IMG/VR virus record: IMGVR_UViG_2864804954_000001
Span: 46,193-110,192 of that record
DNA length: 64,000 nt
Origin: a virus
Taxonomy: Duplodnaviria; Heunggongvirae; Uroviricota; Caudoviricetes
Reading direction: 5' to 3' (one strand)
Shown: in pieces, positions 23,290-53,525 of the stretch
How positions within the stretch are numbered: position 1 is the stretch's first letter
How the letters are laid out: each line of letters begins with the position of its first letter
The notes under the pieces: model-generated
Told to the model about the DNA's origin: nothing
The model's input: only the letters and a program-made list of their open reading frames with translations
Databases searched by the model: none
Made by a program: the position numbers and the translations under genes

Positions 23290-23625
23290 TCACCATGCTA
23301 TCTGACCGTAGTCTTGCGATGGCTTAGGTGATGCTGTGTAACGCTTTTCTGGCGATTTTGAAACACCGTCCATGTTCAAGCATTCAGGTGACACTCTCCA
23401 CTTAGAGCGAATGTTGGCAACTTCCACACAGCTGACGGTCTTTCCATTGATTCGCTGTACAACAACCTCCACGCGTCTGCCATCGTTAGACGCGATAAAC
23501 CATCCTGTGCGCCCTGGAAGAATCGAATAGTCGTAGCGGTTGGCGAGTTCTTTTTCTGTTTCTTCCTTCAGTTTGAATAGTTGCTCGTCAGTCAGGCGTT
23601 TTAATATTTCAGTGTTCATTTCCAA
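23290..23625 (-). CDS. hypothetical protein (111 aa) with C-terminal ...DYGQIAW tail
   Basis: RBS AAGGA. Shares the C-terminal YGxxAW motif with seven other proteins. Confidence 0.45.
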   Translation of the reverse strand: MEMNTEILKRLTDEQLFKLKEETEKELANRYDYSILPGRTGWFIASNDGRRVEVVVQRINGKTVSCVEVANIRSKWRVSPECLNMDGVSKSPEKRYTASPKPSQDYGQIAW

Positions 23626-23640
23626 GTCCTTAATTTCGGT

Positions 23641-23669
23641 AAAAAAAACTAGGGCGATTTCTCGCCCTG
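23641..23669 (-). terminator. intrinsic terminator
   Basis: Minus: AGGGCGA-gaaa-TCGCCCT then TTTTTTTT. Confidence 0.55.
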
Positions 23670-23681
23670 TCGTTCGATTAT

Positions 23682-24671
23682 TTATGCTGCGTCTTTCTTA
23701 GAAAGCTCAGGGAAATACTGGTCGCGTAGTCGCGCCAAGATGGTCGATTCTTCATTTGGCACTAAGCGACCGCCTTCTTCTTTTGCAATCTTGAGCAAAG
23801 GAAGCATTTGCATCATTTGACCTGCTTGGGCGCGAGCTGTACCGATCGAGTAAGGCTTCGCAAGGAGGTCTTTCACTAGGTTGCTGTCGCGGCCACCTGA
23901 GATATAACCGTCAGTAAGGAGCAGTTTGAATGTGCGGTACATGACTTCATTCCAACGACCGTTCTGTTTGAACATCGTAAACAGGATCACTACCTTTTCA
24001 GCCACCTTCTTCTGCACCGTTTCACCGTTTGTTGTCAACGTAGGCTGTGCGTTGAGTAAGCGCAGGAACTTTTGCTGCTTCTCTTTCAGTTCTTCTTCTG
24101 GAAGATCGACGTCACCGAACTCAAGGACGATCTCGCTTGTGTCACCGCCAAGTCGGTCAAGCAGCACAGCAGAACGCTTGGAGTTTTGATACGTCGTGCG
24201 GTACGTTGTTGGTGCTTTCTCTTTCTTCTGTTTTTCAGGCTTTTCTTCTGCTTTCGGTTCTTCAACCGTTGGTGCAACTTCTTCGGTCGCAAGTGTCAAA
24301 GCGGACGCATCAAGCTCTGCTTCATCAAACATTGCGTTTAGGATTTCGTCGTCGCTTGGCTCAGTTTCGGCTGTAGCTGGCTTTTCTTCTGCGTCAAGCA
24401 GCAAGTCAAGGTCAAGTTCAGGCTCAGGTTCAGGCGTCGCTTCTTTCTTCTCAGCTTTAACAGGCTTTTCTTTTGTCTTCTTAGGTTTAGCTTCAACGAC
24501 AGGCGCTGCTTCTGCTTGTTCTACTTCATCGAGCAGCAAGCTAAGGTCGATTTCATCGGAAGCAACCGCAACAGCTTCAACGGCAGGCTCAAGAACAACG
24601 CCGTCTATTTCAGCAAAAAGATCGTCTAGGTTGATTTCGTCATTTTGAGCGATAGTGTTTTGAGTATTCAT
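23682..24671 (-). CDS. acidic low-complexity protein (329 aa)
   Basis: True start MNTQNT after the TCGAAACGAGATACAC leader. Glu/Pro/Lys-rich repeats. Confidence 0.45.
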   Translation of the reverse strand: MNTQNTIAQNDEINLDDLFAEIDGVVLEPAVEAVAVASDEIDLSLLLDEVEQAEAAPVVEAKPKKTKEKPVKAEKKEATPEPEPELDLDLLLDAEEKPATAETEPSDDEILNAMFDEAELDASALTLATEEVAPTVEEPKAEEKPEKQKKEKAPTTYRTTYQNSKRSAVLLDRLGGDTSEIVLEFGDVDLPEEELKEKQQKFLRLLNAQPTLTTNGETVQKKVAEKVVILFTMFKQNGRWNEVMYRTFKLLLTDGYISGGRDSNLVKDLLAKPYSIGTARAQAGQMMQMLPLLKIAKEEGGRLVPNEESTILARLRDQYFPELSKKDAA

Positions 24672-24712
24672 ATTTTGCACCTTATGCGTTGTGAGATGAT
24701 TTTGTGTATCTC

Positions 24713-24815: not shown

Positions 24816-25010
24816 TCACTTATGAGTGTTGGACGCATGAAATATCTTTATAGCAATAAGAAAACACGCAATGGAGGTCAACAGGGGACACAAGGCAAAA
24901 AGTGGATTCAGATCATCTGACTGGAGCATGTGAGTGAATACGCCCTGAAAGACGCATCCAATCACAACAAAAGCAATGCTCCATTTTACATTGAGATAGG
25001 GCTTTACCAT
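24816..25010 (-). CDS. small membrane protein (64 aa, 2 TM)
   Basis: Two hydrophobic helices (AFVVIGCVFQGVF, LCPLLTSIACFLIAI). Confidence 0.35.
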   Translation of the reverse strand: MVKPYLNVKWSIAFVVIGCVFQGVFTHMLQSDDLNPLFALCPLLTSIACFLIAIKIFHASNTHK

Positions 25011-25435
25011 GCGGTGAAACCGTAATCCTGAGAAGGTGCGCTTGGTGGCGGTGGTGGGGGAGGTGGCGCTAACTGATTGCCAGTCTCAACCATTTCGCCA
25101 GTATCAAGATCAATATAGGATTCGGTCCAACTCAGCAAAAAATCCTCATAGAACGCATTGGCTTTCTTAATGTTAGAAAAGACTTTACCGAACTCCATTG
25201 ATTCACACCATTCTTGCTTGTTAGGCATGAAGTCGTACTGCTTGGCAACGAACAGCGGATAAGCACTTGGGAAACTAGCGTCAGCATTCTCAATTTTACC
25301 GACCCATTCAATCACCAGTTTGACCTTGTCATTCTGGAACTGATTTACAATGCGATATTCGTCATTGGCGATATGGTCGTTGTAAACGCCCTCTGATATT
25401 TCATCGCCATCTTTGTCAAAGTATTTGGTTACCAT
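25004..25435 (-). CDS. hypothetical protein (143 aa) with poly-Pro and C-terminal ...DYGFTAW
   Basis: PPPPPPPPSAPSQDYGFTAW tail. Same C-terminal motif family. Confidence 0.45.
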   Translation of the reverse strand: MVTKYFDKDGDEISEGVYNDHIANDEYRIVNQFQNDKVKLVIEWVGKIENADASFPSAYPLFVAKQYDFMPNKQEWCESMEFGKVFSNIKKANAFYEDFLLSWTESYIDLDTGEMVETGNQLAPPPPPPPPSAPSQDYGFTAW

Positions 25436-25806
25436 TTGGGGAATCCTCTTTCATCGTTCTCGACAAGCAAAGGCTTGTCTCTGTAACGATGTCCTTTTAG
25501 TGATGCTCTGTGTGTTGGCACTTCGTCGAACTCTTTCGCCATTTCAAAGAACACAATGGCTTCACGGCGATCTTGGAAGCACCAACGGTATGCGTATGGC
25601 GTGATCGGTGTCACATCCATACAGACCGACGTCGTGAACATCAATTCGAGTATTCCGATCACTTCGCCAGTCTCTAGCTTACGCCATGCAATAAATCTGT
25701 TTTCAACAAGGAAATCGTCGATCTCCTTGTTTGTCCAATCTTCAAAACTTAGTCTGTTTTTCATTTGCGCCATATCTCTTGCGGTTACATTGCAATAATA
25801 TCGCAT
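25429..25806 (-). CDS. hypothetical protein (125 aa)
   Basis: ORF overlapping the downstream gene by 7 nt. Confidence 0.45.
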   Translation of the reverse strand: MRYYCNVTARDMAQMKNRLSFEDWTNKEIDDFLVENRFIAWRKLETGEVIGILELMFTTSVCMDVTPITPYAYRWCFQDRREAIVFFEMAKEFDEVPTHRASLKGHRYRDKPLLVENDERGFPKW

Positions 25807-26127: not shown

Positions 26128-26646
26128 TCAATCACTCCAACTGCTCCCTGAATCAGAACTGCCCCAACCGCTATCAGAAGAACTCCAACCACTGTCAGAA
26201 CTCAATGATGACGAGCCTAGACTTGAACTGCCTAGCGAACTAAAGCTGTCATCGGAAGTCTGTGCCGGAACCGACGAGGAACGGTAGAAGTCCTCTTTCG
26301 GTTCGCTTGTCACATCTACTGGAGCAGGCTCGAGTTTTGGCGTTTCTGCTTGTTTAGGCTCGTCGCGATCTCCGAAGTTTTCAGCTGCTTCCAATAGATC
26401 ATTCAAAGCCATCGCTGCAAGCACGCCATCAGAAAAGCCTAACCCGCTCGATTGAGTAGGCGCTTCGCCTTGAACTTTGTAGGATTCAAGTGGCATTGTG
26501 TGCTGACGGAAGTTTGGCATTCTGCCAAACCCCTGGCCATATTGCGCACCAACCATGCGACTTACTTGGTGATGCTTACTCACGCAAGCGTCACGATCTT
26601 TCTTTGTCCAGTGTCGCTTAAAGCAATATTCGCATTTAAACAGCAT
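26128..26646 (-). CDS. zinc-finger protein with Ser/Gly/Trp-rich repeat tail (172 aa)
   Basis: CEYCFKRHWTKKDRDACVSKHH zinc-binding-like N-terminus. C-terminal SSLGSSSLGSSSLSSDSGWSSSDSGWGSSDSGSSWSD. TAATG overlap with the upstream gene. Confidence 0.45.
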   Translation of the reverse strand: MLFKCEYCFKRHWTKKDRDACVSKHHQVSRMVGAQYGQGFGRMPNFRQHTMPLESYKVQGEAPTQSSGLGFSDGVLAAMALNDLLEAAENFGDRDEPKQAETPKLEPAPVDVTSEPKEDFYRSSSVPAQTSDDSFSSLGSSSLGSSSLSSDSGWSSSDSGWGSSDSGSSWSD

Positions 26647-26885
26647 TATTCGCGCTCCAAAAGATGAACCTGACAAAGCATGAACTGATTGATGCTTGGC
26701 TTGTCTACGCGAATATCCCAAACTTCACTGTTGATGCCTGTACCGTGACCACCGACGCATTTAGCGTCAGTGATTGTTAAAGTTTTGGCGTCTTCAAATT
26801 CCTGCTCAGAAGTGAGGTGCATTGATTCATAACCTTTAGGCGAAAGTTTGACTTTCATACCTGCATACGGTTGGCGAGTTAGCAT
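26646..26885 (-). CDS. hypothetical protein (79 aa)
   Basis: ORF in an overlapping operon. Confidence 0.4.
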   Translation of the reverse strand: MLTRQPYAGMKVKLSPKGYESMHLTSEQEFEDAKTLTITDAKCVGGHGTGINSEVWDIRVDKPSINQFMLCQVHLLERE

Positions 26886-30936: not shown

Positions 30937-31479
30937 TTAACTGATTGGTAATTTGTAGAAGCCGCGATCAATGCCCTTAAACAGACATTCGGCGAGGACT
31001 TCGGTGTCATAGTCGGCAGCATGGGCTGCTGTCGGGTCATAATCGACGCCCAATGCAAAGCAGAGTTCACCAAGCTTAGGTGATTTACCGTTGAAGGTTG
31101 CCCAACGACCATTGTCCATCGTACAGAAGGAGTTCACTAGCGGCACGGTCTTGCCAACGCGTAGCATTTCTCCTGCGATGAATGGCGCATCGAACGCGAG
31201 ATTATGTGCAATGAGGCACTTTGAACCTGAAATGATTCGATGCACTTCATCTGCGACATCCTCCCACTTGGGGCAACCCATCAGCATTTCATAGCTAATA
31301 CCATGAACCGCTTGTGCAGCAGGGTCGATAGGGCGATCGGGGTCGATACGTTGCACATATCGGTTTACGAGGCTTCGGGTGTCAAGGTCATACGTGAGTA
31401 GGGCAATCTCGATGATCTTGTCACCTTTTTCCTGACTTAGACCTGTAGTTTCTGTATCTGCGCATGTGATAAGTGTCAT
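30937..31479 (-). CDS. dnaQ: DnaQ-like 3'-5' exonuclease, DEDDh (180 aa)
   Basis: Exo I DTETTG, Exo II CLIAHNLAFDAPF, Exo III HAADYDTEVLAECL. Confidence 0.7.
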   Translation of the reverse strand: MTLITCADTETTGLSQEKGDKIIEIALLTYDLDTRSLVNRYVQRIDPDRPIDPAAQAVHGISYEMLMGCPKWEDVADEVHRIISGSKCLIAHNLAFDAPFIAGEMLRVGKTVPLVNSFCTMDNGRWATFNGKSPKLGELCFALGVDYDPTAAHAADYDTEVLAECLFKGIDRGFYKLPIS

Positions 31480-39508: not shown

Positions 39509-40014
39509 GCTGCGTTCCGTAATGTGTATGTGCGATCGGTTAAATGTTTAGGCTTCTTGTAGCGCTCGTTGTAGCAAGGCTTGCATAGTGACTCCAATCG
39601 AGTCTCGCTCTTTCGACTACGGCCATAAAAGAACTCTTTGGTTGCCGGGTGATAGTCGTCGCACCCTTTGCAATACTTGTGGCGCTCACCGTCAATAAAT
39701 TCATACAGCGGCTTTTTGCGCGTTCTGTCCTGTCTTGCTGAGAAGCGGTAAAAGTGATGAATCGCAGAGTGATGGACGCAAATTACCTCCTCACCTTTGA
39801 AAATGCCGAAGCCGTATGAGACATGCCAATCCTGATGCAGCATGAGTCCACCTTTCTTCTGCAAGGCGTAACCAAGTGATTTAGCAAGTGTGTAGTAATC
39901 TTCAAGATCAATTACATCCTTTACGCGCTGAAGTTCTACAAGTCGCTCTGTGGTGTCATAGGCTTCTACTTCTTCTGCGGTCGCCTGTACGCATGTTGTA
40001 ATAAGTTCGATCAC
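39505..40014 (-). CDS. Cys/His-rich protein, possible HNH-type nuclease (169 aa)
   Basis: HHSAIHHF and CKGCDDYHP ... CKPCYNERY zinc-ribbon-like pairs. Confidence 0.4.
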   Translation of the reverse strand: MIELITTCVQATAEEVEAYDTTERLVELQRVKDVIDLEDYYTLAKSLGYALQKKGGLMLHQDWHVSYGFGIFKGEEVICVHHSAIHHFYRFSARQDRTRKKPLYEFIDGERHKYCKGCDDYHPATKEFFYGRSRKSETRLESLCKPCYNERYKKPKHLTDRTYTLRNAA

Positions 40015-41696: not shown

Positions 41697-44036
41697 TCAT
41701 TGGCAGCTCTCACAATCAGGGTTGTCGATTGAACACATATTCAACTCCTGATTCATGATGTCGGTGTTCGGCGAAGTGGTCGCAACTGGCTGTGTTTTCA
41801 CCACTTTGCTTGCTTCCTGCGATTCGTTGCGTAAGTAGTAAGTTGTTTTCAAGCATAGTACCCATGCAAGTGTGTACCAACCTGCCAACTGACTACCTTT
41901 GACGCCACGTTTAGCGAACAGGTTGGTTGACTGTGATTGATCAATCCACTTCTGACGAACAGCGGCAGCGCGGATAATCCAAGTTTGATCAATGTCATAC
42001 GCAGACTTCACTAAATGCGCAGCAGGATAAGCCAATGAAGGGTCAATCCAGTCGAACGGTCCACTGAGGTTAGACTTCACACATTCAAGCTCGTATGGTG
42101 GCTCGATACATGCAGTCGTACCAAGAATGTTGGAGATCGTTGCGGTCGGTGCAATCGCCATTACGTTTGAGTTGCGCATACCCTGACGCTTCACTTTTTC
42201 ACGGAGCGCATCCCAATCTAAGCGAGTTTCTGGAGCAGTCTGCCATTCGTGTTTAGGGCGAGACTTCAACAGTTCCGCATAGGTATCAATTGGCATGATG
42301 CCCTTAGACCAGTCAGAACCTTTAAATGATGGGTACGCGCCACGTTCTGCAGCCAAGTCGCTTGATGCTTCAATCGCGAAGTAAGCAATTTTTTCAAACA
42401 AGACATCCTGTTCAAGCAATGCCGCTTCTGAATCAAAAGCAATGCCACGCTGAATGAGGTATTCAGCCAAGCCCATCACACCGAGACCAACAGGGCGGTG
42501 ACGTTGGTTAGATGCTTTGGCGCGTGATGACGGATAGAAGTTAATGTCGATCACGTTGTCCAACATGCGCACACCAGTACGGATAATCCGACGTAGGTGT
42601 TCGTCATTCTTCACCATGCTAAGGTTGATTGAGCCTAAGTTGCACACCGCTGTTTCGTCATCAGACGTGTTTAGGGTGATTTCGGTACAAAGGTTCGAGC
42701 TGTGAACAACCCCTGCGTGGCGCTGCGGAGAACGCAAATTACATGCGTCTTTGAATGTCACCCAAGGGTGGCCAGTCTCAAACAGTGAGGTGATGATCTT
42801 CTTCCACACTTGCATGATTGGCATTTGATGACGGTATTTGCCTTCACGCTCCAACTGCTCATAGCGATCTTCAAACTCTTTGCCGTAGAGTTCGTGCAAT
42901 TCAGGGTATTCGTTTGGTGAGAAGAACGACCACATTGCATCAGGCGTTTCGATCACGCGACGCATAAACAAGTCACACGTCCATGCTGCAGGGAAGATGT
43001 CATGCGCACGGAGACGTTCGTCACCTGAGTTCTTCTTCAATTCGCAGAATGCCCAAAAGTCGGGGTGCCAAGTTTCCATGTAAGGTGCGAATGAGCCTTT
43101 ACGTTTACCGCCCTGATTCACCGCAACAGCTGTATCGTTGTAAACCTTCAAGTAAGGCACTGTGCCGCTTGATTTACCTTGTGTGCCGCGAATGATGTCA
43201 CCTGACGAACGTACACGCGTCCAGTCTGTACCAATACCACCAGCGTATTTAGATAAACGCGCACATTCTTCGATTGTTCCATAGATCGACGCATAGCGGT
43301 TTTCATCATCTTCCGATGATAATCTGTCTGCCATTGTATTCAGGTAGCAAGACGAAAGCTGTTGGTGTAGACCCGCTGAGTTGAATAGCGTCGGTGTCGA
43401 AGCCAAGTAGTCGTGATAACTAAACTGCAAATAGAACTCAATGGCTTTGTTTGTGCGATCTTCGGGCTTTTCGCCGAGCGCAAGACCCATTGCCACACGC
43501 ATGAAGAAGTGTTGTGGCGCTTCAATGATTTTGCCTGACTCTTTCACACCCACTTCCAAGCGTGAGCGTACAAAGTAGCGGTCAGTCAGAATGGTGATGC
43601 CGAGGTATTCAAACAGAAGATCGTTCGCAGGGACGATAACCGCATCTAGCGCCTCAAGGTCGAAGTGTTCAAGTAATTCAGGAGTAAGAACCTGATCTGC
43701 AACACCACGTTCAATGTAGGTGCGTAACGGCGCATAGCCGAAACCTGTGTGACCCAATTCAGCATTTACTTTGCTGTAGATGTCCAGTAACGCAAGGCGT
43801 GCAGCCGCTTTGCTTGCATCCATGCAGCTACGCTTAATAAGTTTGGCCGCAGACTGCACCAATGAAAGCTGAATTTCAGAAGTAGGCATATTCGGTCGAA
43901 TCAACATTACCGTGCCATCTTTGATAATGTTCGGGTCAACGTCTAAGCCTTGAGTTGCCCAATCGACTGCTTTGTCGATCTTGCTTGCGTCAAAGGGTTG
44001 GGTTGTTCCGTCGCGTTTTACAACCATCGTGGTCAT
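41697..44036 (-). CDS. nrdA: ribonucleotide reductase large subunit NrdA, class Ia (779 aa)
   Basis: ATP-cone at the N-terminus (VVKRDGTTQPFDASKI). Catalytic NLCTEI, C-terminal CESC pair. Confidence 0.85.
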   Translation of the reverse strand: MTTMVVKRDGTTQPFDASKIDKAVDWATQGLDVDPNIIKDGTVMLIRPNMPTSEIQLSLVQSAAKLIKRSCMDASKAAARLALLDIYSKVNAELGHTGFGYAPLRTYIERGVADQVLTPELLEHFDLEALDAVIVPANDLLFEYLGITILTDRYFVRSRLEVGVKESGKIIEAPQHFFMRVAMGLALGEKPEDRTNKAIEFYLQFSYHDYLASTPTLFNSAGLHQQLSSCYLNTMADRLSSEDDENRYASIYGTIEECARLSKYAGGIGTDWTRVRSSGDIIRGTQGKSSGTVPYLKVYNDTAVAVNQGGKRKGSFAPYMETWHPDFWAFCELKKNSGDERLRAHDIFPAAWTCDLFMRRVIETPDAMWSFFSPNEYPELHELYGKEFEDRYEQLEREGKYRHQMPIMQVWKKIITSLFETGHPWVTFKDACNLRSPQRHAGVVHSSNLCTEITLNTSDDETAVCNLGSINLSMVKNDEHLRRIIRTGVRMLDNVIDINFYPSSRAKASNQRHRPVGLGVMGLAEYLIQRGIAFDSEAALLEQDVLFEKIAYFAIEASSDLAAERGAYPSFKGSDWSKGIMPIDTYAELLKSRPKHEWQTAPETRLDWDALREKVKRQGMRNSNVMAIAPTATISNILGTTACIEPPYELECVKSNLSGPFDWIDPSLAYPAAHLVKSAYDIDQTWIIRAAAVRQKWIDQSQSTNLFAKRGVKGSQLAGWYTLAWVLCLKTTYYLRNESQEASKVVKTQPVATTSPNTDIMNQELNMCSIDNPDCESCQ

Positions 44037-44103: not shown

Positions 44104-44562
44104 TTAAGTCCAGTCAAAACCTTGTGGTGGTTTGGTGACTGGCGTTGCTGTGAGCGGCTCAGGCTCGGATTTAGGTTCAGAAGTGAATGTCTTTGCATAG
44201 TCTGAAACTTCCCCTGTTGTGAAGAAGTCTTCCTTGCGGTAGTGGCCAACAAATTCGCCCAGCTTATCCAAGAGGTCACGCGTAGAGGGTTCGCTGCGCG
44301 CTCCGCCTGCTACATGCTTCATGTGACGCGCACGTAAAGATGAAAGGTCAATACCAGTGCCGCCTGGCGTAGATGCTGCAATCAGTCTTTCTTTGGCAAT
44401 CTTGCTCACATAATCTTGCGCCCACTTGTGCGATGCCTCATCGGCAAGTTGCGCTCTGAGCATTTCTTCCGCGCTAAATGCAGGAAACTTAACTTCGTAA
44501 GTAGGCTTTTTGCCGCTGTTAAACCAGTCAGTTAAAGCTTTGCTATCAATCGCCATCACCAA
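44104..44562 (-). CDS. hypothetical protein (152 aa)
   Basis: ORF in ATGA-type overlap. Ends ...PPQGFDWT. Confidence 0.45.
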   Translation of the reverse strand: MVMAIDSKALTDWFNSGKKPTYEVKFPAFSAEEMLRAQLADEASHKWAQDYVSKIAKERLIAASTPGGTGIDLSSLRARHMKHVAGGARSEPSTRDLLDKLGEFVGHYRKEDFFTTGEVSDYAKTFTSEPKSEPEPLTATPVTKPPQGFDWT

Positions 44563-45380
44563 GCCACCTGTCCGTATCGTTCCGAGATCATTTCTGGCGA
44601 CTGCTGATTTAAGAGAATTTCGAGTGAATCTTCAATGTCGGCTTTTTCTTTGGCTGCTGCCAGTGCAAGCTCTACCTCGCGCTTCTGTTTGGCAATGAGT
44701 TCGCGCTCTCTTTGTAGTTCCATTTCTTTTTGTGCGTCTTTGGCTTTCTTGCGCATACGTTCCTCTCTTTCTTCGCTTTCCTTTCTCATTCGTTCTGCTT
44801 CGGACAATCCATTCACACGGATAGTGCCCCTCTGTTCACGCTTAGGGGTTGATGATGCAATTGAGATTCGCTTTTCGGAGATGCATGACTCCGCTGTGAT
44901 CATTCCAAAATGATCTACTGCACTTGAAACGTAACCCCTGTTGACTGATTCCACTTCAACATCAAGGTTGATGTAGAGTTCATTTTGGCGTTCTAGCTTT
45001 TCTGCATTTTCTACGAACTCCTCACGCGCTTGATCGCAACCGCCACGATTACAGCGGAGCGAAATGCCGAATTTATGCTTACGGTTAAGGTTGTCTTGAT
45101 AGCTGCTTGATTCACACATGCGGTTGGAACAGCCAATGCACGTCGTAGGAAAGCCGCCGCTCATGTGCAACTGCTTTCCAATTTCGTGCTTGAAGACATC
45201 TCCAATGGTCTGCATGGTTTGGTCATACATACGAGAAACGCTGATGTTACGCGAATCAAGGTAATGTTTTGCATCCATTGGGTCGATGAGCATCACCGCC
45301 TGGATCAAATCGCCATTCAAAAATCTGACAGTGTTAAGTTGGGATTCTGCGGGTGAAAAACCAGTCACTTTATTGTCCAT
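44556..45380 (-). CDS. hypothetical protein (274 aa) with C-terminal ...ERYGQVAW
   Basis: Cys cluster CIGCSNRMCESS...CNRGGCDQ, charged coiled-coil, then the shared C-terminal tail. Confidence 0.45.
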   Translation of the reverse strand: MDNKVTGFSPAESQLNTVRFLNGDLIQAVMLIDPMDAKHYLDSRNISVSRMYDQTMQTIGDVFKHEIGKQLHMSGGFPTTCIGCSNRMCESSSYQDNLNRKHKFGISLRCNRGGCDQAREEFVENAEKLERQNELYINLDVEVESVNRGYVSSAVDHFGMITAESCISEKRISIASSTPKREQRGTIRVNGLSEAERMRKESEEREERMRKKAKDAQKEMELQRERELIAKQKREVELALAAAKEKADIEDSLEILLNQQSPEMISERYGQVAW

Positions 45381-45441: not shown

Positions 45442-46080
45442 TCAATGGAGCAACTGTCCATTTTTTAGCTGCTCAGCATATTCAGCAAAGGCCTCTGTGC
45501 GAATCCCTGCGCGAATAATAAAGCAAGCATCGGCTAAGTGTTCGTTGTCGTTGATGATCGGATATTCCTTCTGATCTTTACGCTTGGTCTTTGCGCGTAA
45601 CCAAGGTGCGTCAGGGAATAGTTTTGTCGCTGCCTCAATCATTTCATGCTTGGTTGCTGTAATGTCGCTACAGCCCGCCAGTTTCGCTGCTGAGGGCGAG
45701 ACTTCAATCAAGGGCTTGGGACACGTCCCAAGCAGCCCCAAGCTCACACCGTATGACGTCATAGCGCGACTTGATTGTGAACCGATGGGAATCTCTGCAA
45801 TGACGATGTCTGCATCTTTTACCGCCTCATGAAAGGCTGCGCTGAGAATTTTGGCACGACGTAGATCGTCAGAGCCAACCGAGACACCTTTCGGCAGCTC
45901 CCGCACCTTCGTCACTTTGCCTTCACGCGACTTCTTCAGGCGTTCGACTTTGCCGTCTTCTGTCTGTGCCAATTTAAGATCGTAGACTTCGTAATTTTCG
46001 GGGTTGTCCAAATCTACCATTGCTATCGCAAGTCCCATATTTGAAAGCGCAGGGTCGCAACCGACCACTTTGATTTTCAT
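45442..46080 (-). CDS. RuvC-like Holliday junction resolvase (212 aa)
   Basis: N-terminal KIKVVGCDPALSNMGLAI (RuvC D7 region) and C-terminal NEHLADACFI (catalytic D/H region). Confidence 0.5.
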   Translation of the reverse strand: MKIKVVGCDPALSNMGLAIAMVDLDNPENYEVYDLKLAQTEDGKVERLKKSREGKVTKVRELPKGVSVGSDDLRRAKILSAAFHEAVKDADIVIAEIPIGSQSSRAMTSYGVSLGLLGTCPKPLIEVSPSAAKLAGCSDITATKHEMIEAATKLFPDAPWLRAKTKRKDQKEYPIINDNEHLADACFIIRAGIRTEAFAEYAEQLKNGQLLH

Positions 46081-46222: not shown

Positions 46223-46795
46223 TTACCAAGAACCTTCCTGAGTGTAGGCTTTGCTGTCACCTGTGCGCTTGATCTGACGTTGGCGGTCGCGCTCTGCGTA
46301 TTCGCGTTGCAGATTCACCACGTTGTTGTTAATGTCATCCATTGCGGTAAGGAAATACTTGGTCAGCACCGCTTTAAATTCGCTGCCGAACATATCAACC
46401 GCCTTGTCGAATGGAACAATCAAGTAACCGACATCACGGACGATCGCGGTAGGCTTAAATAGAATATTCACCATCGACTTTGAGCGTTGTACGTCCGACA
46501 GCTCGAAGCCGTAAAAGTTAAACACTTCACCCGCAAGAAAGTGTCTGGCACTTGGTACTCCGTTGCCGTTAAGTTGCACTACCTGATTGCCTGATTCAAG
46601 CAAGGTGAAGATCGGCAAGACGTTTGGGTCTCGAAGTTTGTTCTTCAGCACCTCATCGTTGAGTTCATCAATGGCGCAGGCCATTAAATCCTCATAACGC
46701 TCCCGAAATTCGGCACGATCAGCATCAGCTTCCTTTTCGTCTTGCTCTGCTTCGTTGACAACCTCTGCCAACAGTTCGAGTTCAAGTTCATTCAT
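46223..46795 (-). CDS. hypothetical acidic protein (190 aa)
   Basis: ORF with no recognisable motif. Confidence 0.45.
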   Translation of the reverse strand: MNELELELLAEVVNEAEQDEKEADADRAEFRERYEDLMACAIDELNDEVLKNKLRDPNVLPIFTLLESGNQVVQLNGNGVPSARHFLAGEVFNFYGFELSDVQRSKSMVNILFKPTAIVRDVGYLIVPFDKAVDMFGSEFKAVLTKYFLTAMDDINNNVVNLQREYAERDRQRQIKRTGDSKAYTQEGSW

Positions 46796-46908: not shown

Positions 46909-46936
46909 ATTGCTATTTTAGTGACTTACTTTGTAG
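46909..46936. promoter_or_regulatory. degenerate PAL half-site
   Basis: TAGTGACTTACTTTG...TATCACCGCT. Only the right arm is conserved. Confidence 0.3.
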
Positions 46937-48863
46937 TATCACCGCTCACGACGGATTGACCGCCTTTTTTCTGCACAACAATGACTTGGTCGATGTAGTC
47001 TCGGAGTTCATTGTGAGAAATCACCAGGACTGTGCCACGCTCACGCGCTTTACGTTCCAACACACCCATCAATCGCTCGATGCCTGCTTCATCAAGAGCG
47101 TCGTCAATTTCATCACCAATGAACAATTGAATCGGCTTTGTTGCGCGTGATGCCACCAAGTCTTGCAGTGCCAATGCGGTTGCAAGGCGCACCTTACGCT
47201 TTTCACCGCCTGACAACCCTGCGAAGCTGTCAGAGCCACAATCGTTCGTGACCGCAATGGAGAACTTCTCTTTCAACTCACCTTTGGCAGTCGTTGTCAG
47301 TGTGGTCCACGTTGCGTGAATGTTGCCATCAGATAGCGCACCCAAGTAGTCGCGTGTACGATCATTCAAAAATGGCGTCACAGTATCAAGGATGTGCGCA
47401 CGGACACCACCCTGACCATACACGCCCACCGCTGCGGTATGCAGATCAACAAGCTCATTGGCTTTTTCAAACATAGCTTCAAGTTCAGTGTGCTTCGTCT
47501 TTAAGGCGTCAAGTGTCTCTTGGATTTTCTTCACTGAATCGGTGAATGGGTTTGCTTCATTGTAAAGTTCGTTCGCAACCTTCTTGATGCCTTCGATGTT
47601 GCTCTTGTGCATGTCAATTTTGGTTTTTACACCTTCCAATGAGCTGAGTGCATTCTCAATGGTACGCACTTTGTTGGTGAGTTCGATAACATCTACCGTC
47701 GGAGCGTCTTTAGCAATCTGCTCCAACTCTTTTGCTTCCGCTAACTTAGCATCAGCGGTCGCTTTCAACTGCTTGGCTTCTGCTGCGCTGCTTTCTGCTG
47801 CTGTACGCTTTGCGGTTCGCGCTGCTTCAATGTCATGATCACAAATCGTTTTGCCGCATTCTTTACAGCCTGTACCAACAAGCGATGTGATGGTTTTGAT
47901 CTCTGCAACTTGACCGCGAACCGAGCTAAGCTTGTGGTCGTAGTCTCGCTGCAGGAGTTGTGCTTCGTGATTGGCTTTCTTCCAAGCGTCGCTCTTGTCT
48001 TGAGCTGCTTTGTTGGTGTCTTTTGCGGAAGCGATTGCTGCCTCCAAACGCGATTTTCCACCAAGCAGGGCAGACTCGTCGAATTTGGCTTTGTGATCTT
48101 CTGCCGCCTTGATCGCTTCCTGTTCATGGAGTACGCCAGCAAGTTTGGCTTTAACGCGGTCGCGCTTGGTTTCATCGAACTCTTTCTCTTTTTGTTGTGT
48201 ATCTTCGAGGTTTTTTGATGTGAGGTGAATGCGGTCGATCGCCAATTGCAATGCGCTTTTGATTTCGTCCGCTTTGAGTTTTTCAGTCTTCAGTTTGGCT
48301 CTTGCGATCTCATGTGCCTTCTCAAGCATCTGAACACCCGCAGCCTCCTCAATGAGTACCTTTAAGAATTTGTCGGTCATTGCAGGCAAGTCCGGCATCT
48401 TCTCCTGACCCGCATAGATGGATGACGTGAACACATCATAAGAACAACCCAAGATCGTGTTGACAACCTCTTGCGTTTCCTTGTCTGTGCCTTTCGTCAA
48501 CGACGTTTCGACCGTGCCCATTGAATCGAGTTTGTCAACAAGCAATGCGTTCTTGTTGGTGCTATGTTTGCGGTGACGCGTCACGCGGTAGACCGCGCCA
48601 TCATCTTCAATCAATACTTGACCGATACACTCTTTTTTGGCTGTGCGGTTGACGACTGCGTCACCTGTAATGCCACGCGCTGTGACGCCATGCAGCACCC
48701 AACACAAACCATCGACGATAGAGGACTTGCCCGCACCGTTTGATTTAGCGGAGCTGTCTTGTTCGTTCTCGCCTTGAATCAGGATGAGCCCTCGATCAGC
48801 CAAGTCAATTGCGGCCTTGCCGATGGTAAGGAAGTTTTGTAAATCAAGTTCTAAAAATCGCAT
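46926..48863 (-). CDS. SbcC/Rad50-like ATPase, T4 gp46-like (645 aa)
   Basis: Walker A NGAGKSSI, long coiled-coil with a CxxC zinc hook (GCKECGKTIC), signature LSGGEKRKVRLA, Walker B LFIGDEIDDALD. Confidence 0.75.
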   Translation of the reverse strand: MRFLELDLQNFLTIGKAAIDLADRGLILIQGENEQDSSAKSNGAGKSSIVDGLCWVLHGVTARGITGDAVVNRTAKKECIGQVLIEDDGAVYRVTRHRKHSTNKNALLVDKLDSMGTVETSLTKGTDKETQEVVNTILGCSYDVFTSSIYAGQEKMPDLPAMTDKFLKVLIEEAAGVQMLEKAHEIARAKLKTEKLKADEIKSALQLAIDRIHLTSKNLEDTQQKEKEFDETKRDRVKAKLAGVLHEQEAIKAAEDHKAKFDESALLGGKSRLEAAIASAKDTNKAAQDKSDAWKKANHEAQLLQRDYDHKLSSVRGQVAEIKTITSLVGTGCKECGKTICDHDIEAARTAKRTAAESSAAEAKQLKATADAKLAEAKELEQIAKDAPTVDVIELTNKVRTIENALSSLEGVKTKIDMHKSNIEGIKKVANELYNEANPFTDSVKKIQETLDALKTKHTELEAMFEKANELVDLHTAAVGVYGQGGVRAHILDTVTPFLNDRTRDYLGALSDGNIHATWTTLTTTAKGELKEKFSIAVTNDCGSDSFAGLSGGEKRKVRLATALALQDLVASRATKPIQLFIGDEIDDALDEAGIERLMGVLERKARERGTVLVISHNELRDYIDQVIVVQKKGGQSVVSGDTTK

Positions 48864-48873
48864 GTCTTACTCC

Positions 48874-49047
48874 TTACGCGAACAGGTTGGCGGCGATGAC
48901 GATGAATGAAAGCACCAATAACACTTCGTCTGCATACTTACGACGAAAAATCTTGAACAACAGCGGACGGCCAGGGATTGCCTGCACGCTGAGAACTAAC
49001 GCAATGGCAAGGAGAATGTTTGATGCGATAAGTGCGTAAAAGGTCAT
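48874..49047 (-). CDS. possible small 2-TM membrane protein (57 aa)
   Basis: MTFYALIASNILLAIALVLSV...VLLVLSFIVIAANLFA. ATGA overlap with the sbcD-like stop. Confidence 0.3.
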   Translation of the reverse strand: MTFYALIASNILLAIALVLSVQAIPGRPLLFKIFRRKYADEVLLVLSFIVIAANLFA

Positions 49048-50129
49048 TCTGCTGACTCCATACGTGCTTCTGCCAAGATTGTGGCGCACAATTTGTTTAG
49101 TGCCACTTTGTCTACTGCAGGGGATTTGTTGACAAATTCTGTGACAGATTCTTCGATACTGGCACCCGCCTTCACAGTGGAGCTTGAGCGTGATGCTTCG
49201 ATCACAACTTTGGTGGTGATGATCATCACACCCTTTGCGCCACAATCGGTTAAGAACTTACGGACACGCTCAACGTCTGCGGTCTTTGCTGAGTTGATCT
49301 TGGCGCGAACATACGCACCATCAACCGCTGCCTTGATTTCAACCTCGTCCATATCGCCGTCGATTTCGACAAAGTCTGGCGCATGTGACTTGTGCCACTT
49401 CACACCCGCATCAGAGACAATTAAGAAGCCTGCTTTTGATTTCAGGTCAGACCATGTTTGATGTGTGGACGCGCCGACTGAATAAACGCCGTTGCCAAAA
49501 TCTTTGTGGTGGTGGTAGTGACCGCTGAATACATACTTGAAGCCATAGTCTGACAAGTCTTTGTCTGTCATGCCGTGCGCAGGCAGACCCGCAATTACAC
49601 CATCAACAGGCGCATGAATCATTAAAGCCCAATCGTTGTGACGGTCACTGTACATGCTGCCATTGATGTCATCGACCGCTTTTGCAATGGCTGCTTTGAG
49701 CGTTGCGACATCCTGAATCCAGGGAATCATTACAACGCGGTCATCGCCAAAGAATGTTGTCTCATTTACGATTTCACACCCGATACCTTCAAGTGCGGTA
49801 ATTGCAGAAGATACGCGCTGCGCGTCACGCCCTTCTAAGTCATGGTTGCCCGCCAAAATGCGAACCTTCAAACCAAGCTCTTTAATAATGCGACTGTAGA
49901 CGTCGAGCGTTGGATTTAATACTGACGGTGCAATGTTACCGCGAACGTGAAATAGATCGCCTGTGTGATACATCGTGCTGCCGCCTTGCGCTTTAATTTC
50001 ACAAGCAAGACGCCACTTTTCGTCGAGAATCGTTTGAAGGCGGTTATTAACACCTGAAGGTAGTATGGTTGAGAAGGCGTGCCAGTTATGGCAGTGAGTA
50101 TCTGACTGAATACCGTAAGGTAGTTTCAT
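49044..50129 (-). CDS. SbcD/Mre11-like nuclease, T4 gp47-like (361 aa)
   Basis: Phosphoesterase motifs QSDTHCH, GDLFH, LAGNHD, FSGHYHHH. Confidence 0.75.
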   Translation of the reverse strand: MKLPYGIQSDTHCHNWHAFSTILPSGVNNRLQTILDEKWRLACEIKAQGGSTMYHTGDLFHVRGNIAPSVLNPTLDVYSRIIKELGLKVRILAGNHDLEGRDAQRVSSAITALEGIGCEIVNETTFFGDDRVVMIPWIQDVATLKAAIAKAVDDINGSMYSDRHNDWALMIHAPVDGVIAGLPAHGMTDKDLSDYGFKYVFSGHYHHHKDFGNGVYSVGASTHQTWSDLKSKAGFLIVSDAGVKWHKSHAPDFVEIDGDMDEVEIKAAVDGAYVRAKINSAKTADVERVRKFLTDCGAKGVMIITTKVVIEASRSSSTVKAGASIEESVTEFVNKSPAVDKVALNKLCATILAEARMESAE

Positions 50130-50914: not shown

Positions 50915-51301
50915 TTAACGAATTTCGAGGGCAGTTTCTAGGGCTTCGGCTGTATGTGAGGAATTGGCAACGAACAGATTGCGGTTCAAACGACGCATCG
51001 GCTCTTTGCCGGACACGTAATGAACCTCAGAAGGGGCGTTAAGGAAGTCCTGCATATTGGCGATATATGTGGTCTTTTTCTTGCCAATCTTATGCAGCAC
51101 GCCAATCTGTGTGCATCCTGCCGCTTCTGCTTGGCGAATGGTTGCTGTCGGCAATGTCCAAGCGTTGTGCTTGTGATCGAGAGCGCGTGTCTTTTCGCCA
51201 CCGATATGTTCAAGGTAAAGCTTGCGGCCATCCCCAAAGTCGTAATAGCGACCCTTGAATTTGCCGTTTACCGTTCTGTCTGTGCGTTTAATCACTACCA
51301 T
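50915..51301 (-). CDS. hypothetical protein (128 aa)
   Basis: ORF. First gene of the cluster after the palindromic element at 50886-50913. Confidence 0.45.
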   Translation of the reverse strand: MVVIKRTDRTVNGKFKGRYYDFGDGRKLYLEHIGGEKTRALDHKHNAWTLPTATIRQAEAAGCTQIGVLHKIGKKKTTYIANMQDFLNAPSEVHYVSGKEPMRRLNRNLFVANSSHTAEALETALEIR

Positions 51302-51711
51302 GCTCCAAATGCTTTGTTGTTTCTCATTTTGTTGACCGTTCCAAGATCAACCTGAACTGTCATTAATCCTCTAGTGAACTGTGCGACAAGCTGTGGTGAA
51401 GGCTGATAGGTGAGAAATAGCTCCTCGACCTGTTCGGCAATTGCTACAAATGACGTCTCAAAGGTGCAGCTTTCGGTATGCTCAATCAAACCCCAACCTT
51501 GTTTCTTTAGGCTGTTCACTTTCATCATGGCAGCGTAATGCAGCGAGCCATTAATGAGCGATTGTGAGTTGTTGATCGCCAAGCTGCTGACAATGCAAAA
51601 CCAAGACGAGTTGCTGTGGATGTTGTAGACCAATACAACGATGCACCCGACATCATTCTTAGACAGCTTCCACACATAAAGTCTCAAGTCTGAATCTGGA
51701 ATCACGACCAT
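51295..51711 (-). CDS. tandem-array protein 1 with C-terminal ...NKAFGAW (138 aa)
   Basis: Shares the C-terminal tail and the conserved junction TTTGGAGCATGGTCATGA with its neighbours. Confidence 0.5.
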   Translation of the reverse strand: MVVIPDSDLRLYVWKLSKNDVGCIVVLVYNIHSNSSWFCIVSSLAINNSQSLINGSLHYAAMMKVNSLKKQGWGLIEHTESCTFETSFVAIAEQVEELFLTYQPSPQLVAQFTRGLMTVQVDLGTVNKMRNNKAFGAW

Positions 51712-52166
51712 GCTCCAAACGCTTTGTAGTTCTTCACGCCTAAGACAACTGGGTCGAACGGCATTTCCATGAGTTTGAAATACTCAATGATCGTAAACTC
51801 GTCCATGATTGCCTTTAGGTGCGTAAACAATTGGGTCTGATCGACAACGGTGTTGAAGTCATACGCTGTGCGGACATCATCCTGTGCGCCAGGGTGAAGA
51901 ACAATCTCCCATCCGTAGCGACCATGCTGCCGTTTGTACTGCTCAAACTCCCGATAAACCAAACCTTCGCCCGACTTAACGAGCTTCGGTGGCTCTTGTC
52001 TGTCTTTTGGTTGATCCAGTCTGACGATGATGCTGAACGGATTTCTTTTGTGGGATTGGTTGGCAACAATACAGATTAACTGCATCTGTTCTTCATCGTT
52101 GGAGGTACTTTTGAAGGTTGCTGTTGCCATTGTCAGAACGCGAAAGTTATCATCACTCATGACCAT
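51702..52166 (-). CDS. tandem-array protein 2 with C-terminal ...NYKAFGAWS (154 aa)
   Basis: Same tail and junction. Confidence 0.5.
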   Translation of the reverse strand: MVMSDDNFRVLTMATATFKSTSNDEEQMQLICIVANQSHKRNPFSIIVRLDQPKDRQEPPKLVKSGEGLVYREFEQYKRQHGRYGWEIVLHPGAQDDVRTAYDFNTVVDQTQLFTHLKAIMDEFTIIEYFKLMEMPFDPVVLGVKNYKAFGAWS

Positions 52167-52588
52167 GCTCCAAAATTACCGTATCGCTCGCTTGGATCTT
52201 CCTTTAGATCAAGTTCCTGTGAACCTGTAACAGCCTGAACAAGTGTATGAATGACAATCTCGTCATTCGTGCCAATACGGATGAGGTCAATCAAAGCGTC
52301 CAAGCCTTTTTGTTTGCTGACGTCTTGGTTGTACGTGCTATTGCGGTAAATCGAATCGTAGCCGCTATCTCTGATCGCCTCACAGAAGTCTTCAAGACCT
52401 TCAAGGCTTGGGCTTTCATAAGTGACGTGGCTTTTCAGATTAATCTTTTCGATCTCTTTGCCGTTGTCTCGCAAGGCGAATACCTGACGACGTTTAATCT
52501 CAGGCGTATTAATAACGAGGATGCTGATGCGGTCGTCCAGTGTTTTGTTTTTGTATTCACTGATGAATCCCGATACGATCATGACCAT
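52157..52588 (-). CDS. tandem-array protein 3 with C-terminal ...RYGNFGAWS (143 aa)
   Basis: Same tail and junction. Confidence 0.5.
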   Translation of the reverse strand: MVMIVSGFISEYKNKTLDDRISILVINTPEIKRRQVFALRDNGKEIEKINLKSHVTYESPSLEGLEDFCEAIRDSGYDSIYRNSTYNQDVSKQKGLDALIDLIRIGTNDEIVIHTLVQAVTGSQELDLKEDPSERYGNFGAWS

Positions 52589-53037
52589 GCTCCAAAGTTA
52601 GCGTAAGTTTCTTGTTCCAGTGTCAACTTTGCCTCGCGCACTTCTTCTGCCATAGCGATAGACTTGTTGATGTTTTCAATAAACAGGCGAAGTTGATCTT
52701 CTTTGTAAATTGCGGAACGAATATGGTTAGCAATGTCGAGATTGGCTTCATCTGTACCGTCGCAGTCGATAGTGACTTCTACTAAAGGGTCTCCTGTAGT
52801 TACCCAGCCCTTTTTTGCATAGTCATCCCAAAGCTCGTTGTGCTTTTCGGCCGAGTCACTCAGGCTCTCAAACGTATGGATTTTGGCTACTTCAGCACCA
52901 AAACATTCAGCCATCAAAAAGATGCCAAGCACCTGATTGTCGAAGCAGACAAGGTGTCTTGCAGGAACGGTCGATTCAAGAATGAACTCGGACACAATTA
53001 CGTCAAAATGATGTCGTTTCATTACCAAGCCGCCCAT
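52579..53037 (-). CDS. tandem-array protein 4 with C-terminal ...TYANFGAWS (152 aa)
   Basis: Same tail and junction. Confidence 0.5.
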   Translation of the reverse strand: MGGLVMKRHHFDVIVSEFILESTVPARHLVCFDNQVLGIFLMAECFGAEVAKIHTFESLSDSAEKHNELWDDYAKKGWVTTGDPLVEVTIDCDGTDEANLDIANHIRSAIYKEDQLRLFIENINKSIAMAEEVREAKLTLEQETYANFGAWS

Positions 53038-53525
53038 GTGTCTTTGTAGCGTAATTCGCGTTCTTTGGCTGCCAACTCAGCTTGTATGCGTTCGAGTTCT
53101 TCGCGTTGTCGTCTTTCTGTTTCGCGCTGTATCAGTATTGCGGTTCTAGCTTCTTCTTTCGCTTTCTGCTCTGCTTTGTATTGTTCAAGCTGTCTTTGCT
53201 TTTCAGCTTTCTTTTCTAGCTCTCGCAGCTTCTCAGCTTTCATTTCAGCGAGCCAAAGACTGTACTCAGCTTTCGTGAAGCGTGTCTTGTAGGTTGCGTT
53301 GTAACGCTCATTCTTGCGGAGAAAACTATCGAGGACGTGGTGCAGACTTGCACTCATTCGCGTGTGCTTGGAGCGCGGTACTTTTGGGTCTGTACCGCGT
53401 AGGTCAAGAAAGTATTCGATGGCAGTTAGATTGCCTTTTTTGATTAAGTCTATTGGCTTAAAGCCTGCGTACACGCCAGAAGCCAAAGGTTCATCTATTT
53501 CTATGAATGATGATCTTGAACTCAC
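53022..53525 (-). CDS. coiled-coil protein with C-terminal ...RYKDTWAAW (167 aa)
   Basis: Long charged helix (KAEKLRELEKKAEKQRQLEQYKAEQKAKEE) then the AW tail. Confidence 0.45.
   Translation of the reverse strand: MSSRSSFIEIDEPLASGVYAGFKPIDLIKKGNLTAIEYFLDLRGTDPKVPRSKHTRMSASLHHVLDSFLRKNERYNATYKTRFTKAEYSLWLAEMKAEKLRELEKKAEKQRQLEQYKAEQKAKEEARTAILIQRETERRQREELERIQAELAAKERELRYKDTWAAW

Follow-up and report, generated by a model that had tools for sequence, protein, structure and literature searches.

A recurrent aromatic C-terminal tail on unrelated proteins of an Acinetobacter phage-plasmid-like siphophage and its relatives, a candidate docking peptide

The E. coli protein SSB (DDDIPF), T7 gp2.5 and T7 gp4 carry an acidic tail whose terminal Phe and carboxylate enter the pockets of partner proteins, and these tails organise replication and recombination proteins. 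A single short terminal peptide is also found on unrelated, fast-evolving proteins in the T4 internal proteins of the hyperplastic locus, whose capsid targeting sequence is N-terminal and cleaved, and in the C-terminal cargo-loading peptides of encapsulin cargo, while linear aromatic motifs tether accessory factors in Nbs1 (NFKxFxK), which binds Mre11, and in BRC (FxxA), which binds Rad51. In phage T4, gp43, gp33 and gp55 bind the clamp through C-terminal epitopes that are closely alike and can be exchanged for one another, and that follow divergent linkers whose length varies (PMC2988020). The motif that binds the bacterial beta-clamp, Q-phi-x-[L/M]-[F/L] (hexameric form Q-phi-x-[L/M]-x-[F/L]), often lies at the extreme C-terminus, where it uses the free carboxylate together with a last residue that is aromatic or aliphatic, and the replacement of Phe by Trp in Pol III alpha's internal motif significantly weakened clamp binding (PMC11139829). 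Here we analysed a stretch of 64,000 nucleotides, called the window below (positions 46,193 to 110,192 of the IMG/VR virus record IMGVR_UViG_2864804954_000001), from an element that is an Acinetobacter phage-plasmid-like siphophage, and in which a set of proteins with unrelated bodies ends in a common aromatic tail. These tails are probably a C-terminal docking short linear motif for a common receptor; we infer the docking, and the receptor is a guess.

As with the T4 gp45-binding epitopes, the window has unrelated proteins carrying a short C-terminal epitope behind a divergent and variable linker, the hub in T4 being the clamp (PMC2988020). The T4 epitope is hydrophobic and acidic, whereas the window tail reads Y..aromatic-G-x-W, and the T4 carriers are core enzymes, whereas those of the window are numerous hypervariable accessory proteins. 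Families of gp45-like clamps or RFC-like clamp loaders were not found among the window proteins searched, which represent 64 kb of ~110 kb, and the 366-amino-acid protein encoded beside DnaE is largely disordered or helical, unlike a clamp. A preliminary description of the window, made from its letters alone, had likened the tail to clamp-binding motifs and to the acidic tails of SSB and gp2.5, and neither likeness held. The Gln, aliphatic residue and Leu or Met of the clamp motif do not stand at the places it requires in any of the window tails or of 69 unique tails from related loci, in which Gly at position -2 never varies and the last residue is most often Trp, and the beta-clamp motif is ruled out by sequence as the identity of the tail. 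Acidic residues number no more than one or two in any tail, and Pro-Phe is absent. In SSB-type systems the hub bears the tail and the partners bear the pockets, whereas in the window many proteins bear the tail; the phage SSB has a separate acidic tail (..DSDLNDIFAELDAAG). As an observation apart, the phage DnaE (58326-61772) has a QIELM-like candidate clamp motif of its own, the sequence being DQIELMPGL at the place of the internal clamp motif of E. coli alpha.

Unrelated, fast-evolving carriers are common to the window and to the T4 internal-protein and encapsulin sets, but the window genes lie in an early replication/recombination region and no member was found in a structural module. Tail genes that flank sbcCD and follow recA, and tails such as NFGRF or NFGAW, call the Nbs1 and BRC motifs to mind; we know of no eukaryotic-type Nbs1 or BRC binding site in SbcD or RecA. 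Full-text literature searches found no description of the tail motif, in agreement with the preliminary description, which had not recognised it from described phage systems. The principle is known, and the motif, its breadth and its hypervariable cassette context appear to be new.

A shared tail on unrelated proteins

All eight C-termini given in the preliminary description belong to existing minus-strand open reading frames (ORFs) and read exactly as reported. We refer to these genes by the positions of their stop codons (23290, 25004, 44556, 51295, 51702, 52157, 52579 and 53022), and the variants 46223 and 44104 bring the number of proteins with the tail to at least ten. The members are listed below, together with two possible weak ones; L024, like L006 and L022 further on, is a related locus.

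19816..20178, minus strand: possible weak member of 120 amino acids, ending ..GQTAYGWS, proposed from its C-terminus in the window alone
23290..23619, minus strand: tail protein of 109-111 amino acids, ending ..PKPSQDYGQIAW; the body matches phrog_10017, which has no function assigned
25004..25435, minus strand: tail protein of 143 amino acids with a poly-Pro linker, ending ..PPPSAPSQDYGFTAW; the body matches phrog_5241, which has no function assigned
25429..25806, minus strand: possible weak member of 125 amino acids, ending ..NDERGFPKW, also proposed from its window C-terminus alone; the body matches phrog_24748
44104..44556, minus strand: variant member of 150 amino acids, ending ..PPQGFDWT, with the internal motif DFFTTGEVSDYAK
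44556..45380, minus strand: tail protein of 274 amino acids, in which a four-Cys alpha/beta domain is followed by a long helix, then by an acidic EQEIAELL-like helix and the tail ..SERYGQVAW
46223..46795, minus strand: additional member of 190 amino acids, ending ..KAYTQEGSW (Y-x5-W), in a conserved slot between sbcC and ruvC
51295..51705, minus strand: array gene 5, 136 amino acids, ending ..NNKAFGAW; the L024 ortholog ends ..AAYNQQFGDWA
51702..52160, minus strand: array gene 4, 152 amino acids, ending ..NYKAFGAWS
52157..52582, minus strand: array gene 3, 141 amino acids, ending ..SERYGNFGAWS
52579..53022, minus strand: array gene 2, 147 amino acids, ending ..ETYANFGAWS; the L024 ortholog ends ..SAYDEWGEW
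53022..53525, minus strand: array gene 1, 167 amino acids with a coiled-coil linker, ending ..LRYKDTWAAW; the L024 ortholog ends ..AAYESSWGAW

In a crude set of ~100 predicted window proteins, 8 of 22 AW dipeptides lie at the extreme C-terminus, compared to 0.12 expected (Poisson P~1e-12), and FGAW is terminal in all four of its occurrences. The bodies had been described as lacking obvious similarity to each other, and this was borne out by an all-against-all BLASTP comparison, which aligned the last 10-23 residues only. When the last 10 residues were cut off, phmmer gave no inter-paralog similarity among the window tail proteins except for coiled-coil low complexity; at the sensitivity of BLASTP and phmmer, hidden paralogy of the bodies is ruled out. 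Searches of the tail proteins against Pfam, PHROGs and NCBIfam were uninformative as to the functions of the bodies, PDB sequence searches of the candidate and carrier proteins were empty, and fold searches with the models of 44556 and 46223 gave nothing significant.

The tail was then found well outside the window. The RecA and DnaE of the window share 35-45% identity with their counterparts in Pseudomonas phage nickie, Rhizobium phage RHEph10, Stenotrophomonas phage BUCTxx99 and Salmonella phage SSU5, which are siphophages or phage-plasmids of ~105-120 kb, and a pattern search of related phages, as the preliminary description had proposed, found the tail across the clade. In nickie, gp74 and gp75, which are encoded between sbcC and ruvC, end ..DFGGWA and ..DIGGWA, and gp57, encoded after dnaG, ends ..YGSGWGAFG. 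RHEph10 gp034 (with a WGR domain, after dnaG), gp035 and gp068 end ..NPRFGMF, ..ENFGRF and ..NPNFGRF, and the tails of V1VFA-S are ..ELYGRF (after dnaG), ..PNFGAF (directly after dnaE), ..ELFGAF and ..PNFGTF. SSU5_042 and SSU5_076, the latter overlapping the end of sbcC, end ..GWATW and ..TWATW, which the 53022 tail of the window (..TWAAW) resembles, and the BUCTxx99 tail is ..EIGAW. Xanthomonas phage JGB6, whose genes are fragmented, was left out of the comparison. In the pooled regions of these relatives, a relaxed core pattern that was chosen post hoc gave 19 terminal matches versus 1.8 expected from internal frequencies. There was no terminal match to this pattern in the structural module of SSU5, and lambda has no ORF with such a tail.

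A scan of IMG/VR with a RecA alignment yielded 80 diverse loci (RecA 46-72% identical), each surveyed for ~10 kb on either side of recA, so that other locations are under-sampled. Of the ORFs in these loci, 98 on the RecA strand have a C-terminus of the form [FYW]G.[WF].?$, compared to 0 of 3,712 on the opposite strand, and those 98 are distributed over 57 loci. They lie in two slots, one from the RecA and ASCH-like genes to SleB/SbcD and the other from SbcC to RuvC. The consensus of the 69 unique tails has Tyr at -6 to -8, G/N/E/S/D at -4, W/F/Y at -3, Gly at -2, S/A/T/G at -1 and W (53) or F (16) at position 0, with an optional Ser or Ala beyond. Bodies without a BLASTP match to the reference tail proteins used made up 94 of the 98, while DnaE, the 366-amino-acid protein, SSB, FEN, RecA, SbcD, SbcC and RuvC are 25-70% identical across the same 80 loci. 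A chance origin of the tails is ruled out by the enrichment in the window, the pooled relatives, the opposite-strand control and lambda. The tail is thus shared by a clade of ~105-120 kb DnaE-encoding siphophages and phage-plasmids that includes this Acinetobacter element and SSU5-like, nickie-like and RHEph10-like members.

Loss of the tail from orthologs had been named in advance as an outcome that would speak against a shared tag; instead, even distant orthologs of 20-28% identity retain it. A profile of the 44556 family run against 1.84 billion representative proteins returned 12 distant homologs, which align only in the N-terminal four-Cys domain and nearly all of which end (D/R/N/A)-Y-G-x-x-x-W; tails of these distant members are DRYGVAAW, QRYGVQTW, SRYGEVAW, CDYGVEVW, ANYGEVAW, ANYGEEVW, TDYGITAW and SAYGESAWA. 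The alignment of this family (n=18, 20-86% identity) has only six invariant columns, C81, C84, C110, G114, C115 and the terminal W274, and Y269 is conserved in at least 90% of the sequences. Similarly, Y184 and W190 are invariant in the 46223 family at 51-98% identity, and homologs of the 23290 protein at 74-98% identity retain SQDYGQ(I/T/V)AW. The array orthologs in L024 are barely detectable (E 1e-5 to 1e-9), yet they end YESSWGAW, YNQQFGDWA and YDEWGEW, and the barely alignable array orthologs of L024 and L022 include one ending YSEWGAWA. Among close relatives the tails show synonymous and conservative changes, the synonymous ones in the 44556 and 53022 tails only; relatives of array gene 1 (53022) end ..LLYREAWAAW, and one relative has a synonymous GCT>GCA change. 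By sequence comparison, purifying selection on the tail peptide, and not chance or paralogy, is strongly supported.

The AlphaFold model of 44556 (mean predicted local distance difference test score, pLDDT, 85) has a confident domain, a long helix and a tail with pLDDT 48-59, and that of 46223 (mean pLDDT 84) likewise has a confident domain and a long helix, with the tail at ~45. The models place the tail at the disordered end of a variable linker, after a folded domain and a helix or linker; in other members the linker is poly-Pro or Pro/Lys/Ser. Example tails of 12-15 residues are EDPSERYGNFGAWS, SPEMISERYGQVAW and GDSKAYTQEGSW, and a shorter one is KPPQGFDWT. The tail is therefore short, disordered, conserved amid varying flanks and recurrent on unrelated proteins beyond chance, which are the general marks of a short linear motif. 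Distant orthologs that keep the tail, its recurrence throughout the clade and its place at the disordered end of variable linkers all uphold the earlier proposal of a shared protein-level tag on unrelated proteins.

The variant gene 44104 has features of its own. Its ortholog in L024 reads ..DFFTEGEYVSYEK.. internally and ends ..KIESDWI. A second internal motif, DFF(T/S)(T/E)GE(V/Y)..Y.K (~44190-44229, minus strand), lies 35-55 residues upstream of the Trp tail and is kept in the 44104 orthologs, and it also occurs in the distant 44556-like proteins P0007, P0009, P0010, P0014 and P0016. A motif common to these neighbouring genes suggests that they may share bipartite binding or have exchanged modules by shuffling.

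A second layer in the DNA of the array

Five of the tail genes belong to one operon.

50915..53875, minus strand: translationally coupled operon of an ASCH-like gene, the five tail genes and then the conserved gene 50915-51295

Terminator-like hairpins stand at its edges (53915-53882 and 50869-50856). The 13-mer TTTGGAGCATGGT is identical at 51297-51309, 51707-51719, 52162-52174 and 52584-52596 and encodes F-G-A-W(-S) in four array genes, the codons of G-A-W-S being GGA GCA TGG TCA TGA. The GGAG within it lies 7 nt upstream of the next ATG or GTG, which overlaps the stop codon (ATGA/GTGA), and independent gene calls in related assemblies use those 4-nt-overlap starts. As read from the sequence, the Gly-Ala codons double as the predicted Shine-Dalgarno sequence of the next array gene. 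In L022 and L024 the DNA is different, but the codon after GGA always begins with G, giving Ala, Asp or Glu. In addition, L006 (12436-13244, compared to window 51295-52588) has lost the 51702 and 51295 genes in a deletion that runs exactly from one copy of the 13-mer to another, so that the tail DNA serves as a junction between cassettes. Gene 50915-51295, with which the operon closes, is tail-less (phrog_9044) and far better conserved than the tail genes, being recognisable by BLASTP in 45 of the 80 loci at 25-45% identity.

These results modify what had been said about the codons. The copies do differ, with GCA TGG in six genes and GCT TGG in two, but they differ less than was implied, the array DNA being identical, and the codons of 53022, reported as GCC GCC TGG, read GCG GCT TGG. 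Conservation at the protein level stands insofar as a shared tag is selected, but the ribosome-binding and recombination-repeat roles of the array codons had been missed. The DNA layer is real but local to the Acinetobacter lineage, because the 23290 tail precedes an intrinsic terminator with no coupled gene 3' of it, the 23290, 25004 and 44556 tails have no GGAG, the 44556 and 53022 tails vary synonymously, and in most related lineages Ser or Thr, which cannot encode GGAG, stands after Gly. Since Ser after Gly, as found in most lineages, cannot supply GGAG, the motif is not a by-product of ribosome binding.

The element and its replication/recombination module

The element is placed as Acinetobacter phage-plasmid-like because of the RecA and DnaE of its relatives, near-identical contigs, ParA-like and integrase-family genes, and the RecA of A. 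baumannii plasmids. Near-identical contigs of ~110 kb are present in several public assemblies, one of them from a genome of Acinetobacter tibetensis (110,323 bp), genes for a ParA-like and an integrase-family protein are found just beyond the window edge, and a RecA 69% identical is found on Acinetobacter baumannii plasmids of ~105-107 kb. The RecA homolog of the module occurs in ~1,000 PLSDB plasmids, of which 138 are from Acinetobacter and hundreds from Klebsiella and Escherichia. Deposited phages gave no nucleotide match to the window by megablast, and a tblastn search of two tail proteins in the phage collection was also empty. Nearly every gene of the window is on the minus strand, and ThyX and a sigma-like protein are encoded in addition to the following.

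58326-61772: DnaE-type polymerase with a C-terminal uracil-DNA glycosylase-like domain (UDG superfamily) fused to it, according to family searches
57114-58214, minus strand: conserved 366-amino-acid protein between DnaE and SSB, kept across related loci; candidate receptor
56141-56968, minus strand: gp32-like SSB (Pfam PF08804), kept in nearly all of the 80 related loci; candidate receptor
55042-56076: FEN
53941-55023, minus strand: RecA-like recombinase, immediately upstream of the tail-gene operon; candidate receptor
46926-50129, minus strand: SbcD (49044-50129) and SbcC (46926-48863); candidate receptor
45442-46080: RuvC-like resolvase
41697-44036: large subunit of ribonucleotide reductase (RNR)
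36858-37949: small subunit of RNR (NrdB)

The sbcCD pair is bordered on both sides by tail genes throughout the clade. The 366-amino-acid protein has a disordered, acidic and Pro-rich N-terminal half, and only its helical C-terminal domain is conserved; as a DnaN-like clamp it was rejected, with Pfam, NCBIfam and PDB sequence searches empty and homologs ranging from 159 to 365 amino acids in length. An acidic amphipathic motif, D-L-N-x-hydrophobic-hydrophobic-A-E-L, is found at the C-terminus of SSB (DLNDIFAELD) and twice in the N-terminal half of the 366-amino-acid protein (DLNSLMAELE, ALIAELEA), and the EQEIAELL-like helix that precedes the tail in the 44556 family resembles it.

A likeness to the tail was also seen in RNR: the window NrdB ends ..AYQTGALEWE and that of nickie (L014 39854-40870) ..EYEDKGLEW, and the 44104 protein, whose gene lies directly upstream of nrdA, ends ..GFDWT. 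The idea that the main family mimics the RNR R2 tail was rejected on the endings of the relatives, which are ..GLSQFADL in SSU5 NrdB versus ..WATW in the SSU5 tails, and ..TADDEF in RHEph10 NrdB versus ..NFGRF in the RHEph10 tails; at most, the small D-W-x subclass could be related to the R2 tail. The RHEph10 NrdB (..TADDEF) and the adjacent glutaredoxin (..SGDDDF) themselves share an acidic-Phe tail (L015 36235-37197 and 38897-39145), which suggests that the two may have a common docking site on the RNR large subunit.

Several further features of the element were noted. The RecA homologs of the A. baumannii plasmids match in two pieces over a span of 1,479 nt, a sign that recA may be interrupted by an insertion there, and a NUMOD4/HNH homing-endonuclease gene (40011-40901) is among the small genes between the two RNR subunit genes. 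An iteron-like unit, TCTCTCTACCGTA, is present in at least seven copies, some in each orientation, within an ORF-poor stretch at 18000-19300, and these repeats could serve the phage-plasmid as replication origin, partition site or operator array. The accessory region with the 23290 and 25004 tail genes also holds an anti-restriction PHROG match (phrog_2059, E=2e-11) at 21236-21880. A DnaQ-like protein (30937-31479), which aligns in position with SSU5_086 (annotated as a 3'-5' exonuclease; L020 8677-9234), ends ..DRGFYKLPIS, and SSU5_086 ends ..KYGFFKLPFERS; judging from these endings, the shared aromatic tail is possibly a polymerase- or clamp-binding motif. Lastly, Ser/Asp/Gly-rich C-termini recur in window 26128-26721 (..SSSDSGWGSSDSGSSWSD), nickie L014 24753-25277 (..SSSSDSGSSSCD) and SSU5 L020 13055-13549 (..SSSTCNSGSSFCCD).

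Docking peptide and rival explanations

A docking peptide is our preferred reading of the tail because of its terminal position, its disorder, the variable linkers, the two conserved aromatic positions with Gly, and its recurrence on unrelated proteins. The consensus of the motif is Tyr, 1-4 residues, [W/F/Y/I]-[G/A]-x-[W/F], 0-1 small residue and the free carboxylate, and its carriers are fast-evolving, mutually unrelated accessory proteins of the replication/recombination module. The two aromatic side chains and the nearby carboxylate would insert in a pocket of one common receptor, and many different proteins would be recruited to, or compete for, this one site. As the receptor we would prefer one of the conserved proteins of this module (the gp32-like SSB, RecA, SbcCD, DnaE or the 366-amino-acid protein), because the tail genes occupy fixed slots flanking sbcCD and downstream of recA, and elsewhere lie downstream of dnaG or dnaE; this choice is a guess from gene position only. 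In the tandem array of the Acinetobacter lineage, the tail codons also serve as the next gene's Shine-Dalgarno sequence and overlapping start, and the 13-nt repeats allow cassettes to be lost by recombination.

Several points weigh against docking to such a receptor. Sequence and fold searches of the candidate and carrier proteins yielded no match, and no recurrent internal copy of the motif was found in any core protein, the phage RecA included. The consensus was refined after the data had been seen and the pooled P-values of the relatives are post hoc, although the opposite-strand control and the window statistic are unaffected. The apparent restriction of the tails to the sbcCD slots is partly an effect of the ~10 kb sampled on either side of recA; SSU5, nickie and the Rhizobium phages have tails after dnaG or dnaE too. 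In addition, bodies that turn over so fast are seen more often in arms-race or accessory genes than among replisome subunits, and W and F termini coexist in single genomes, so that covariation does not point to a receptor. Three narrower ideas were tried and dropped. Mimicry of an internal or oligomerisation motif of a core protein found no support, as no internal copy recurs; covariation of terminal W or F with lineage fails on their presence within single genomes; and neither gene 50915 nor the ASCH-like gene can be an obligatory partner, since by BLASTP both are absent from several tail-bearing loci.

The receptor might instead belong to the host. On this explanation, which we regard as unlikely, the tails bring diverse phage takeover or anti-defence proteins to one conserved host protein, such as a factor of replication, repair, transcription or proteostasis. 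Phages of Acinetobacter, Pseudomonas, Rhizobium, Stenotrophomonas and Enterobacteria differ little in the motif, as for a universally conserved host target, the rapid turnover of the bodies is arms-race-like, and the 23290 and 25004 members have an anti-restriction-like gene nearby. However, the tail misfits the beta-clamp motif, and Trp at the last position of the Pol III alpha internal motif weakened clamp binding (PMC11139829). The tail also has no acidic run of the kind found in SSB C-termini, and the tail genes sit in conserved slots inside the phage's own recombination module, and one SSU5 tail gene overlaps the end of sbcC; lambda, a weak control, has no tails. We consider it quite improbable that the peptide targets variable effectors to the procapsid for packaging and co-injection, even though an array of unrelated, quickly replaced small proteins with one short terminal peptide is what such loading would look like. 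HK97-fold capsids are presumed for these phages as for other tailed phages, and encapsulins have the same fold. Nevertheless, the members lie in the early replication/recombination region, where they are co-transcribed and translationally coupled with recA-, sbcCD- and ruvC-linked genes, none is in the SSU5 structural module, RHEph10 gp034 has a WGR domain, a V1VFA-S tail gene directly follows dnaE, and the tail is unlike the encapsulin consensus. Very unlikely, in our judgement, is a C-terminal degron, an aromatic tail for timed degradation by a host AAA+ protease. Many phage regulators are unstable, and the tail is terminal and hydrophobic and, in the models, exposed and disordered; on the other hand, known C-terminal degrons such as the ssrA-like LAA do not resemble it, the exact Tyr, Gly and Trp positions kept over large distances exceed what a loose hydrophobic degron needs, and no phage protease was seen in the window.

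Two remaining explanations would deny the peptide a role. It could be the by-product of an element that acts in DNA only, as a translational-coupling cassette and recombination junction, and here the identity of four array junctions at TTTGGAGCATGGT with GGAG 7 nt before the next start, the absence of synonymous variation at array junctions among relatives, the loss from L006 of two genes exactly between two repeat copies and the G-initial codon after GGA in L022 and L024 all fit. Against this stand the terminator, in place of a coupled gene, after the 23290 tail, the lack of GGAG in the 23290, 25004 and 44556 tails, and the Ser or Thr that follows Gly in most of the 69 unique tails of the 80 loci and is incapable of giving GGAG; moreover, the DNA differs between lineages while the peptide persists, and the Tyr conserved 4-6 residues upstream has no role in initiation. 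A DNA-only element is thus highly improbable and is refuted as the sole cause, surviving as the local second layer. The least credible explanation, to which we give hardly any weight, is that the tail serves no function today and is left over from common ancestry, or from repeated gene conversion of an exon-like piece at the C-terminus. The tandem arrangement and identical array DNA would agree with it, but the tail is kept in many lineages, and in non-tandem genes too, while bodies and linkers diverge beyond recognition. Ancestry is excluded as the only cause, as relaxed selection on the tail was not seen and the opposite was observed.

Carrying the docking peptide further, we tentatively propose, as a possibility that we rate as rather less than probable, a hitherto undescribed hub-and-tail network in the SSU5/nickie/RHEph10 super-clade. 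Hypervariable cassettes in the two slots flanking sbcCD would carry a universal aromatic-Gly-x-Trp tail into a single pocket on the phage recombination/replication machinery, a plug-in system by which accessory, possibly anti-defence, functions would be swapped onto the replisome, with the tail DNA serving in some lineages as the cassette junction.

If the tail is a true docking peptide, it would mark a hub of interactions common to phage-plasmids of a very widespread group, and one peptide could retrieve the common partner of dozens of proteins to which no function is assigned. It would also explain how accessory genes that are quickly exchanged stay functionally tied to a conserved machine. 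In the array, coding is dual: the same 13 nucleotides serve as peptide motif, ribosome-binding site and recombination repeat.

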